Source: Candidatus Falkowbacteria bacterium
GTDB lineage: Bacteria > Patescibacteriota > Patescibacteriia > UBA11705 > JABHMO01
Direction of reading: 5' to 3'
DNA length: 64,000 nucleotides
NCBI GenBank assembly: GCA_018674305.1
Contig: JABHAL010000008.1
Location: 954-64,953, forward strand
Both the position numbers and the translations under genes were made by a program. Within the stretch, counting starts at the first letter, position 1. The number at the start of each line of letters is the position of its first letter. Shown one piece after another: positions 28,409-28,993 of the stretch. The notes beneath the pieces are model-generated. The model saw only the letters and a list, made by a program, of their open reading frames with translations. It was not told the DNA's origin and searched no databases.

Positions 28409-28547
28409 TGGTACCGGGGGGCGGGATCCCGAAGGGACACGTTGAACCGCCGAAGACAAAGGTCGAGTCACTTGGGGACGACCTTAGGGTTATGATTCCT
28501 ACGCTCTAACCAACCCCGAAGGGGCCCCTTTGGGGCTGAGCTTTTTG
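28409..28547 (-). pseudogene. degenerate tRNA-Met(CAT) copy with hairpin insertions in the D-, variable and T-loops and a lost 5' acceptor strand
   Basis: Aligns base-for-base with the intact tRNA at 28826-28902 except for three insertions: CCCGAAGGGGCCCCTTTGGGGC in the D-loop, 28 nt in the variable loop, and CCCGAAGGGACACGT in the T-loop. The 5' acceptor GCCGGGGTA is replaced by GCCACCAAAAA. Its 5' part overlaps the 3' end of the GIY-YIG ORF. Confidence 0.7.
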
Positions 28548-28802
28548 GTGGCATTTTTCTAGTATAAATAGTTTATCGGTATAACCAGAAGGTTTTTTAA
28601 GATAATATTCACGTTTATAGGCTGTTGATTTGTTGTTGTACTCTTCAAAGTAAATTATTTTCCAAGGTCTTCTATGTTTTGTAGATTTAACGTGACCAGC
28701 ATTGTGCTTATTCAATCTATGACTAAGATTAATTGAAGTACAGCCAATATAAAATCCTTTGTCTTTAAGACTTTTAAGAAAGTAAACTTTGTAGGAGTCC
28801 AT
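28506..28802 (-). CDS. GIY-YIG nuclease domain protein (URI/YhbQ-like, 98 aa)
   Basis: YKVYFLKSLKDKGFYIGCTSINLSHRLNKHNAG...RPWKIIYFEEYNNKSTAYKREYYLKK fits the GIY-YIG core (Y.VY.L...YIG.T.NL..RL..HN ... R....K). Starts 23 nt downstream of tRNA-Met on the same strand. Confidence 0.7.
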   Translation of the reverse strand: MDSYKVYFLKSLKDKGFYIGCTSINLSHRLNKHNAGHVKSTKHRRPWKIIYFEEYNNKSTAYKREYYLKKPSGYTDKLFILEKCHQKAQPQRGPFGVG

Positions 28803-28825
28803 TTTTTATTTAGTTTCTATTTTTT

Positions 28826-28902
28826 TGGTACCGGGGGGCGGGATTGAACCGCCGACCTTAGGGTTATGATTCCTACGCTCTAACCAACTGAGCTACCCCG
28901 GC
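28826..28902 (-). tRNA. tRNA-Met (anticodon CAT, elongator-type C11:G24; could alternatively be tRNA-Ile-lysidine), CCA encoded
   Basis: Cloverleaf folded by hand: acceptor GCCGGGG/CCCCGGT, D arm GCTC-AGTTGGTTA-GAGC, anticodon arm TAGGA-ATCATAA-CCCTA, T arm GGCGG-TTCAATC-CCGCC, then ACCA. Confidence 0.85.
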
Positions 28903-28933
28903 ATAAAATTGTTTTGGGAGATCTATTTAAAAA

Positions 28934-28993
28934 TGATTCCTACGCTCTAACCAACCCCGAAGGGGCCCCTTTGGGGCTGAGCTACCCCGGCAT
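28934..28993 (-). pseudogene. 5' half copy of tRNA-Met (nt 1 to about 35) carrying the same 22-nt D-loop insertion
   Basis: ATGCCGGGGTAGCTCA[GCCCCAAAGGGGCCCCTTCGGG]GTTGGTTAGAGCGTAGGAATCA, then unrelated sequence. Confidence 0.7.

Follow-up and report, generated by a model that had tools for sequence, protein, structure and literature searches.

A GIY-YIG nuclease gene between hairpin-interrupted tRNA copies: a putative tRNA-targeted selfish element in Patescibacteria and other bacteria

The nearest experimental analogue of the element described here is SegB, a GIY-YIG homing enzyme of the tRNA clusters of phages T4 and T6, which is associated with many isotypes and can drive the tandem amplification of tRNA plus segB units; microhomology shared by the tRNA 5' end and the 3' end of the nuclease gene has also been reported (PMC2330249; PMC13096335). 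Prokaryotic Slx1-like proteins have been treated as a putative repair family, vertically inherited and of unknown function (PMC1564403), GIY-YIG open reading frames (ORFs) have been found in non-intron insertions of the rRNA genes of the candidate phyla radiation (CPR), in work that did not extend to tRNA genes (PMC11270868), and mitochondrial genomes retain GC-rich single- and double-hairpin elements with conserved stems and variable loops (PMC2800124). Here, a stretch of 64,000 nucleotides from a Candidatus Falkowbacteria genome (contig JABHAL010000008.1, positions 954 to 64,953; hereafter the window) was analyzed with respect to its tRNA-Met locus, where a small Slx1-like GIY-YIG gene lies between duplicated tRNA copies that are interrupted by GC-rich mini-hairpins. 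We consider it probable, although well short of certain, that this locus is a selfish, tRNA-gene-targeted nuclease cassette that duplicates its target and persists as tRNA-ORF-tRNA*, the last being the decorated copy.

Architecture of the tRNA-Met locus

The locus was read on the minus strand between 28200 and 29700 by means of ARAGORN, Rfam, repeat finding, alignment, and BLAST. In minus-strand order, which applies to all features of the locus given below, it comprises a 5' fragment of tRNA-Met (a), an intact tRNA-Met(CAT) (b), the GIY-YIG ORF (c), and a 3' copy of tRNA-Met (d). These four pieces had been listed in a first-pass annotation made from the letters of the DNA, and all of them are present, with coordinates that shift by 1-5 nt. 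Gene (b) (28902-28826; called by ARAGORN and, at 63.7 bits, by Rfam RF00005) is the sole functional-looking tRNA-Met copy at the locus. It is followed by a 23-nt leader (28803..28825), which extends from the tRNA 3' end to the ATG and doubles as the junction repeated in tandem units, and then by the ORF (28802-28506), which encodes 98 aa with a Pfam GIY-YIG match (PF01541, E=2.4e-15, 57 bits against a cutoff of 22.6).

Copy (d) (28542-28409, its start having been placed at 28547 at first) covers tRNA positions 9-77, adjoins the native downstream flank, and is non-functional. As described earlier, its 5' acceptor strand is gone and, outside three inserts, it is identical to (b) at every base. 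The inserts are a 22-nt twin hairpin in the D-loop at position 15/16 (28514..28535), 28 nt in the variable loop (28451..28478, with a placement ambiguity of 3 nt) in which the flanking AAGGTCG recurs in inverted form, and 15 nt in the T-loop at position 58/59 (28428..28442) that consist of CGTG and a TCCC-TTCG-GGGA hairpin. Fragment (a) (28991-28933, slightly inside the 28993-28934 first proposed) represents tRNA positions 1-37, which BLAST aligned in two parts (query 1-15 at 28991-28977 and query 15-37 at 28955-28933). It is split at position 15/16 of the D-loop by the same 22-mer, CCCCAAAGGGGCCCCTTCGGGG (28955..28976), a twin mini-hairpin of the form CCCC-AAA-GGGG / CCCC-TTC-GGGG. This 22-mer occurs twice in the window against 0.00 occurrences expected by chance, and an exact direct repeat of 51 nt at 100% identity (28492-28542 and 28933-28983) is common to (d) and (a). 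The cloverleaf is incomplete in both pieces, (d) lacking positions 1-8 and (a) lacking positions 38-76, and neither was called as a tRNA by ARAGORN or by Rfam RF00005 at E<=10. The TAG stop and the final codons of the ORF are tRNA-derived sequence, and the D-loop hairpin of (d) lies within its last 15 codons, so that the protein end does include the hairpin insert, as had been claimed. The 30-nt spacer between (a) and (b) (28903..28932) shows no more similarity to the ORF or leader than shuffled sequences do, and an origin of (a) as the scar left by another, ORF-less element is therefore unproven. A further GC hairpin, CCGGGC-CTT-GCCCGG (28997..29011), is located directly upstream of (a).

An assembly artefact, that is, a chimeric or collapsed repeat, was named in the first-pass annotation as a finding that would undo its reading, and this explanation is extremely unlikely. 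Some contigs do stop inside the repeat, and self-overlapping contigs make the copy number in the window uncertain. However, the exact window protein is on record in 71 blocks of the sequence collection, the identical arrangement recurs in independent contigs of ENA and the Joint Genome Institute (JGI) from different projects and assemblers, an orthologous arrangement exists in a different Falkowbacteria genome (L011), and the same design is found in dozens of unrelated genomes. Other contigs carry two identical units of 417 nt, each composed of the leader, the ORF, and (d) (L002, with tandem evidence also in L003). In four ENA samples, an Asp2Ala variant of this unit closes on itself in contigs of 417+k nt (417+141 or 417+99; L100-L103, that is, ERZ27237612, ERZ27246207, ERZ27237615, and ERZ27237613), as would be expected of several units in tandem or of a free circle. 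Because tandem units exist in other samples, the lone unit of the window may be a collapsed array.

Recurrence at other tRNA genes and turnover among relatives

A one-genome-per-species scan found 357 relatives, and the counts given here derive from 80 retrieved loci. The closest genomic homolog (L011, 71% amino-acid identity) belongs to the other Falkowbacteria genome, and all five of the more distant homologs obtained by protein search adjoin tRNAs with the same design. Two orders were recognized. In type A, an intact tRNA is followed by the ORF and a hairpin-decorated 3' copy, as in the window, L006 (tRNA-Gln), and L009 (tRNA-Met). In type B, a decorated 5' fragment is followed by the ORF, the intact tRNA, and often a 3' fragment, as in L004 and L010 (tRNA-Pro) and L008 (tRNA-Asn-like). 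A co-oriented tRNA lies within 150 nt of the ORF in 47/80 loci and belongs to any of 16 isotypes; the chance expectation, estimated by us from the tRNA density of the window, is ~1-2%. Beyond the ORF, 46 of the 47 tRNA-linked loci carry collinear exact pieces of the neighboring tRNA, usually interrupted by inserts of 15-70 nt. Both the tRNA neighborhood and the further decorated loci that the first-pass annotation had suggested looking for were found in this way.

The position of the ORF relative to the tRNA is also stereotyped. In nearly all loci the stop lies between -14 and +44 nt from tRNA position 1 or within the 3' fragment, the three outliers looking like mis-set ORF ends, and in many cases a conserved tRNA TAG, either in the D-arm or at U8-A9-G10, supplies it. 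A few tens of nt separate the tRNA or fragment from the ATG, type-A leaders measuring 19-71 nt. The hosts are chiefly Patescibacteria but also include Bacteroidota, Ignavibacteria, Desulfobacterota, Planctomycetota, and others, and no tRNA adjoins the archaeal (Hadarchaeota) loci of the 80-locus scan. In L014 (1379-1836), from a Bacteroidota metagenome-assembled genome (MAG), full-length tRNA-Pro(GGG) copies with a 22-nt twin hairpin at position 24/25 stand on both sides of the ORF as identical 97-mers, with no clean copy in view, and ARAGORN miscalls a 4-base-anticodon tRNA.

Syntenic loci were identified via homologs of the neighboring metallophosphoesterase. The syntenic sister species L105, in which the neighboring gene is 84% identical and the gene order is the same, possesses at tRNA-Met a single clean gene followed by CTCTTAA..., the native flank that follows (d) in the window, and has no (a), no ORF, and no (d). 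In an alignment of (d) to this tRNA-Met, the 28- and 15-nt inserts appear as gaps and the downstream flank is conserved. Three more distant syntenic relatives (L109, L110, and L112) are likewise empty at tRNA-Met. At tRNA-Leu, L105 carries a complete type-B element, in which a 5' fragment that matches positions 1-24 of the gene exactly precedes the palindrome CTGCCTGCCGGCAGGCAGG and a GIY-YIG ORF that abuts tRNA-Leu. Alignment with L105 revealed a degraded element at the corresponding site of the window (29405..29513), which consists of a diverged 5' tRNA-Leu fragment (~29507-29491), a 20-nt palindrome identical to that of L105 at 20/20 positions (29490-29471), the first 31 nt of a deleted GIY-YIG ORF (29450-29420, with ~235 nt missing compared with L105), and a leader of 15 nt that runs to the intact tRNA-Leu(CAA) (29318..29404). 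This tRNA-Leu is the degraded element's target and does not differ from that of L105. A promoter-like site, TTGACA-17-TATACT (11/12; 29541..29569), lies just upstream of the 5' fragment and is conserved in L105. Since L105 has the same fragment and palindrome together with a complete ORF, the palindrome of the window is the scar of a decayed element. The tRNA-Leu-like fragment and the 20-nt palindrome noticed earlier are real, but the palindrome interrupts the 5' fragment at ~position 23/24 (3' side of the D-stem) and does not replace an anticodon arm.

Between the window and L105, tRNA-Met differs at 8/77 positions, and tRNA-Leu and tRNA-fMet differ at 0/87 and 0/76, respectively. The tRNA-Met difference points to replacement or accelerated change of the targeted allele. 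The contrast of 8/77 with 0/163 in the two neighboring tRNAs is consistent with co-conversion or allele replacement at the nuclease target, although the lineage that changed is not assignable. The empty site in the sister species, the decayed copy at tRNA-Leu, and the many isotypes all favor the idea, put forward in the first-pass annotation, of a mobile nuclease gene at a tRNA target. As for the repeated homing or co-conversion proposed alongside it, the duplicated target pieces and the presence/absence between species fit the first part, and the 8/77 difference is consistent with the second.

Relics without a nuclease gene were also encountered. In L109 (1366-1560), where no GIY-YIG gene is present, two additional copies of the final 19 nt of tRNA-fMet stand in tandem behind that gene, each preceded by a GC-rich spacer of ~64 nt, and this looks like an ORF-less relic array. 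In L112, a diverged tRNA-Ile pseudo-copy (~1877-1990) whose D-loop and T-loop contain GC hairpins is located upstream of tRNA-Ile(GAT) (2011-2085) in the 16S-23S spacer, and no nuclease gene lies close to it. Such ORF-less relics may be common beside CPR tRNAs and could mislead tRNA annotation.

These patterns of gain and loss bear on the possibility that the host has domesticated the nuclease, which would share a transcript with tRNAs and act, for example, in repair or copy-number upkeep at heavily transcribed tRNA genes or in RNA processing, with the fragments as by-products. Strong purifying selection over a long divergence, a large clade of homologs without any tRNA neighbor, and the view of prokaryotic Slx1-like proteins as vertically inherited repair factors (PMC1564403) would suit such a protein. 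We nevertheless find it quite unlikely, given that the gene is missing at the same site in close relatives, that at the tRNA-Leu of the window the ORF was deleted and the tRNA kept, which amounts to neutral loss between sister species, and that only one copy of the nuclease gene exists in 64 kb while the gene is found at many isotypes. Furthermore, the stop is borrowed from the tRNA and tandem arrays occur, both of which are marks of an insertion rather than of an operon.

A selfish cassette of the kind we favor would consist of an ~85-codon Slx1-like GIY-YIG gene with an ~20-nt leader, no DNA-binding domain, and a stop usually borrowed from conserved tRNA sequence, and it would sit within the transcription unit of tRNA-Met, with its duplicated target on either side. 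Gene (b) would stay intact and serve the cell, and (a) and (d), truncated and interrupted by hairpins (often twins of 11+11 nt), would occupy the original 5' and 3' borders of the gene. The nuclease may break tRNA-gene DNA, and repair from, or crossover with, an element-bearing copy could then install the tRNA-ORF-tRNA* arrangement, the tRNA sequence acting as homology arms and the donor being the chromosome, a tandem array, or possibly a 417-bp circle. One tRNA would stay clean if productive crossovers fell in the terminal stretch free of hairpins (type A, the last 18-19 nt; type B, the first 10-16 nt), and further crossovers in this stretch could build arrays. We favor a combined role for the hairpins, which may stop the spare copy from working as a tRNA, and probably from serving as a nuclease target, and may break up direct repeats that would otherwise delete the gene. 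They may also fold out, so that the flanking tRNA segments could pair with, and be homogenized against, the real tRNA.

The nuclease, the hairpins, and the spare tRNA copies

A profile built from the ORF and its homologs matched the PDB entries 1zg2 (E=3.7e-13) and 1ywl (E=2.8e-12), both UPF0213 proteins, and Slx1 (1.6e-5). The AlphaFold2 model, with a predicted local distance difference test score (pLDDT) of 86, has the strands (E) and helices (H) E4-11, E17-22, H26-34, E47-55, and H58-69 in a beta-beta-alpha-beta-alpha order. Its best structural matches in PDB are UPF0213 1zg2 and Slx1, with template-modeling (TM) scores of ~0.5-0.64, I-TevI reaching just a Foldseek E of 2.2. Residues Y7, Y18, G20, R29, H33, N34, and E65 are invariant among 17 sequences. 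The catalytic domain is the only domain of the ORF product, no DNA-binding module (NUMOD, helix-turn-helix, or zinc finger) having been found by domain search, and the core length is 84-98 aa; residues 89-98 of the window protein, encoded by the hairpin- and tRNA-derived DNA, are predicted to be disordered. Based on the profile matches, the fold, the invariant catalytic residues, and the lack of a DNA-binding domain, the protein is a minimal prokaryotic Slx1-like/UPF0213 GIY-YIG enzyme and not a homing enzyme of the I-TevI or Seg type. Thus, the nuclease fold anticipated in the first-pass annotation is present, but its description as a classic homing endonuclease does not hold. No family for the protein was found in NCBIfam, PHROGs, or PADLOC; a tblastn search of phage records gave 17 weak matches, of which the one looked at is not adjacent to a tRNA, and a neighbor-joining tree of the 70-aa core is too poorly resolved to show whether hairpin type and protein have diverged together. 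The proportion of nonsynonymous differences (pN) between the window ORF and its L011 ortholog is 0.19 and that of synonymous differences (pS) is 0.87, with ranges of 0.15-0.23 and 0.79-0.94 across ortholog pairs. Because pN is low while synonymous sites are saturated, the nuclease is under purifying selection.

The inserts average 66% GC, the host loci 41%. In 40 loci, GC mini-hairpins reach 8.4 per kb in tRNA-fragment zones versus 0.70 per kb elsewhere, a 12-fold enrichment, and at least one strict GC hairpin is present in 27/40. A recurrent 22-nt twin is composed of two hairpins with 4-bp stems and 3-nt loops, NCCC-AAA-GGGN followed by NCCC-TTC-GGGN, and occurs in copies of tRNA-Met, -Asn, -Ser, and -Pro at D-loop, anticodon-loop, variable-loop, and D-stem sites. 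The purine-rich loop comes first on the sense strand in 7/7 twin hairpins. Across nine twin-hairpin loci, 72/72 stem cells are Watson-Crick, 4/8 pairs show compensatory change, and no G-U pair occurs, the pairing figure being biased upward because the loci were chosen as hairpins. Saccharibacteria elements at tRNA-Ser/Tyr carry CCCCGC-loop-GCGGGG at fixed sites, and elements at tRNA-Gln carry CCCT...AGGG at position 11/12. The first-pass annotation held that the hairpins are targeted precisely to tRNA loops. This is true of the three inserts of (d), but our clade-deduplicated tally for the family gives ~14 sites in loops and ~8 in stems or stem junctions, and the inserts in L035 and L014 destroy stems outright; loop placement is a tendency across the family, not a rule.

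The spare copies were further compared between the window and L011, whose own tRNA-Met, in a different neighborhood, carries the same type-A element and whose variable-loop and T-loop inserts occupy the same sites. The intact tRNAs of the two loci differ at 7/49 compared positions, whereas each decorated copy differs from its own tRNA at 0/49. The inserts themselves drift. At the variable-loop site, the 28-nt insert of the window and a 22-nt twin hairpin of L011 are barely alignable, and at the T-loop site, CGTG + TCCC-TTCG-GGGA in the window corresponds to CGTG + CCCA-TTT-TGGG in L011 (10/15 identical), the stem being preserved because the changes are compensatory. Tracking of the own tRNA by a decorated copy whose inserts drift was also seen in a tRNA-Asn clade. 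In L006 and L009, the decorated copies differ from the neighboring tRNA by compensatory stem changes and look like copies of a foreign functional tRNA. Since the decorated copies remain at 0/49 from their own tRNA while the intact tRNAs differ at 7/49, the spare copies do not decay freely; their tRNA-like segments are either homogenized against the working gene or selected to match it, with the hairpins kept in place. At tRNA-Leu, the fragment has diverged in the window, where the ORF is deleted, whereas L105, with its intact ORF, has a fragment that does not differ from the tRNA.

The mini-hairpins could be viewed as independent, tiny mobile or mutational elements that pile up in dispensable AT-rich DNA, in which case the broken tRNA copies would be junk. 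We judge this unlikely. The hosts are indeed AT-rich (GC ~37-41%), hairpins persist in relics that lack the nuclease gene, and similar palindromic twin hairpins exist in AT-rich intergenic DNA of viruses and giant viruses. However, 5/8 of the all-GC mini-hairpins of the 64-kb window fall within ~500 nt of this locus (28514-29011), and the 12-fold enrichment in tRNA-fragment zones holds over 40 loci. Moreover, the hairpins occupy orthologous positions with covarying stems across lineages whose synonymous sites are saturated, which therefore argues for retention by selection rather than repeated random insertion. A search of viral contigs for the twin-hairpin palindrome was uninformative, since it returned just GC palindromes of a generic kind from AT-rich intergenic regions of viruses and giant viruses. 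In five IMG/VR loci (L092-L096, including a giant-virus MAG) from genomes of 27-32% GC, intergenic clusters of GC hairpins contain perfect palindromes of the form CCCGAAGGG-NN-CCCTTCGGG.

Another explanation, also raised in the first-pass annotation, is that the decorated copy is expressed as a functional tRNA-like RNA, for instance as a guide or handle of the nuclease, a regulator, or a stabilizer of the 3' untranslated region. The C(UUCG)G-type and triloop hairpins, their fixed sense-strand orientation, the match of the tRNA segments to the resident tRNA, and fragments that fall in the untranslated 5' or 3' portion of the nuclease transcript are features expected of an RNA. On the other hand, (d) lacks the 5' acceptor strand and has no Rfam match at E<=10, and no excess fold stability over shuffled sequences was obtained for (d) (z=+0.10) or for a reconstructed, hypothetical full-length decorated tRNA (z=-1.56). 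Selection at the RNA level is likewise not indicated by the 0 G-U pairs in 72 stem cells or by the strand test (G.T 15 versus A.C 11), and at other loci inserts lie in, or in place of, stems. This explanation is therefore very unlikely, and the suggestion of an expressed RNA was not borne out.

Because the predicted fold is Slx1-like, a serious alternative is that the hairpins are working parts, the other four rivals being less likely. The nuclease would recognize or cut extruded GC hairpins set in tRNA-homologous arms, and the resulting nicks or breaks would start recombination with real tRNA genes, leading to homogenization, amplification, and spread, with specificity residing in the DNA (or RNA) arms instead of the protein. 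We give this a modest probability, well below an even chance. The best structural relatives are Slx1 nucleases, which process branched DNA, and the protein has no DNA-binding domain of its own. Within nuclease clades, the hairpins keep their design, position, and pairing and are inherited together with the nuclease, the twin hairpins keep one sense-strand orientation (7/7), the tRNA segments beside the hairpins track the resident tRNA, and close relatives of the nuclease reside at different isotypes. The tRNA-Leu fragments, diverged with the ORF deleted and identical with the ORF intact, fit as well, but this link between ORF loss and fragment decay is a single comparison. In addition, a break at a hairpin that is repaired from a clean tRNA should erase the hairpin, 4-bp stems are too short for stable cruciforms, and about one third of the loci have no strict hairpins.

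Several points also weigh against the selfish, tRNA-targeted cassette that we prefer. To our knowledge, no prokaryotic Slx1-like protein has a known cleavage activity or target site, and the protein has no DNA-binding domain with which to find tRNA genes. An exact-pattern search of JGI metagenomes for an empty allele in the same species, a clean T-arm joined to the native flank, found none; the polymorphism is therefore between species and not within a population. Long purifying selection on intact ORFs is unexpected for a fixed, pure parasite, unless reinvasion is frequent, and the origin of the stereotyped twin hairpins is not accounted for. Uninterrupted repeats of 33-97 nt persist in the window, L044, L035, and L014, and blocking recombination therefore cannot be the whole role of the hairpins, which in their strict GC form are absent from about one third of the tRNA-associated loci. 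Finally, the resident and the element-borne tRNA copy are not distinguishable. A more speculative proposal, to which we attach a small probability, is that the minimal Slx1-like nuclease obtains its target specificity from nucleic acid, the hairpin-punctuated tRNA arms serving as handles for recognition or cleavage and as self-updating homology or guide segments, either as DNA or as the untranslated part of its transcript. If true, such specificity would let one enzyme of ~85 aa colonize any tRNA gene and would give the prokaryotic UPF0213/YhbQ family a function.

The tRNA cluster is flanked by genes for ParA, ParB, AspRS, AsnRS, ScpA, and the metallophosphoesterase, with a glycosyltransferase gene also in the neighborhood. 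The metallophosphoesterase shows 100% identity to an NCBI protein from Candidatus Falkowbacteria (Patescibacteria/CPR), so the host is a bacterium. Elsewhere in the window, a perfect palindrome of 66 nt is found at 41237-41302 (two 33-nt arms, 100% complementary, without a spacer), and tandem repeats of 18 nt (AAGGGCAAAAAGTACGCC and variants, ~6-7 copies) at 51380-51505 probably encode a lysine-rich peptide repeat. The region 3901-7410 contains paralogous repeats (289 nt at 70% and 114 nt at 89% identity) and, in three copies, a terminator-like hairpin of 46 nt with a promoter-like TTGACA behind it, which suggests tandemly duplicated gene cassettes.

Comparison with known systems

No description of tRNA-embedded Slx1-like GIY-YIG genes or of hairpin-decorated tRNA duplicates was found in the searchable literature, which does not cover all journals, and the element family is apparently undescribed. 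If the preferred reading is correct, a widespread class of selfish elements of ~0.4 kb resides in tRNA transcription units of Patescibacteria, Bacteroidota, Desulfobacterota, and other phyla, and prokaryotic Slx1-like/UPF0213 proteins acquire a first biological context. It would also mean that tRNA alleles in streamlined genomes can be replaced by nuclease-driven conversion, and the GC hairpins and tRNA pseudo-fragments that disturb tRNA annotation and break up metagenome assemblies would be accounted for. Two questions follow: how a nuclease without a DNA-binding domain finds tRNA genes, which is testable, and why spare targets carry conserved mini-hairpins and yet match the working tRNA.

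Two familiar kinds of tRNA-gene interruption were considered and set aside. Integrase islands and prophages at tRNA genes, with their attL/attR borders, share with the window element the single intact tRNA and a partial tRNA duplicate at the other border. However, no integrase or other tyrosine or serine recombinase was detected within ~9 kb on either side of the locus, the element is only ~0.4 kb long, and its duplicate spans most of the tRNA and carries hairpins. Archaeal non-canonical tRNA introns and split tRNAs are similar in that inserts lie in the D-, variable-, and T-loops and that 5' and 3' pieces are separate; this reading was put aside in view of the bacterial host, the adjacent intact copy, and the missing 5' acceptor strand of (d), and also on the grounds that the pieces overlap instead of being complementary, no formal bulge-helix-bulge scan having been made.

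Mitochondrial double-hairpin elements (DHEs) and GC clusters populate AT-rich organelle genomes, and in the atp6 case of Allomyces a free-standing mitochondrial GIY-YIG ORF reportedly comes with a replacement piece of the host gene. In design, mitochondrial GIY-YIG ORFs and DHEs resemble the window element in the AT-rich genome, an ORF abutting or fused to a gene, a displaced duplicate of the gene end, and GC hairpins. In contrast to the hairpins of the window element, which are confined to tRNA-fragment zones, the mitochondrial cases concern organelles, protein or rRNA genes, and dispersed hairpins. Dispersed hairpin repeats, whether of the DHE/GC-cluster kind or like repetitive extragenic palindromes (REP), were rejected as a class for the window element on the concentration of mini-hairpins at this locus (5/8) and the 12-fold enrichment in fragment zones, only 64 kb of the genome being covered by the first of these figures.

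The insertions of CPR rRNA genes resemble the window element in host (Patescibacteria/CPR), in the GIY-YIG superfamily, and in their site in a structural RNA gene. They differ in residing in rRNA instead of tRNA genes and in that duplicated, hairpin-decorated targets have not been reported for them. An ORF of 121 aa with matches to the 23S_rRNA_IVP / bAvd family was observed at 25328-25693 (plus strand), 3 kb from the tRNA cluster, the Pfam matches being those of the same gene in L001; this family is also known from CPR rRNA insertions (PMC11270868).

As for the protein itself, Slx1-like/UPF0213 proteins (YhbQ, COG2827; PDB 1zg2 and 1ywl) have in common with the window protein the fold family, the minimal domain, the Tyr/Tyr/Arg/His/Glu residues, and the absence of an auxiliary domain. 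Unlike what is seen for the window element, neither mobility nor tRNA association nor target duplication has been reported for them. SegB is phage-borne, roughly twice as long, and equipped with DNA-binding modules. In contrast, the window protein belongs to the Slx1-like branch, has no PHROG match, is rare in phage records, and is not linked to tRNA in the one phage case examined, and hairpin-interrupted tRNA duplicates like those of the window have not been described for SegB. Nonetheless, the Seg system and the window element share a GIY-YIG gene among tRNA genes, many isotypes, and tandem tRNA plus nuclease units, and the family described here appears to be kin to free-standing homing-type nuclease genes with target duplication.

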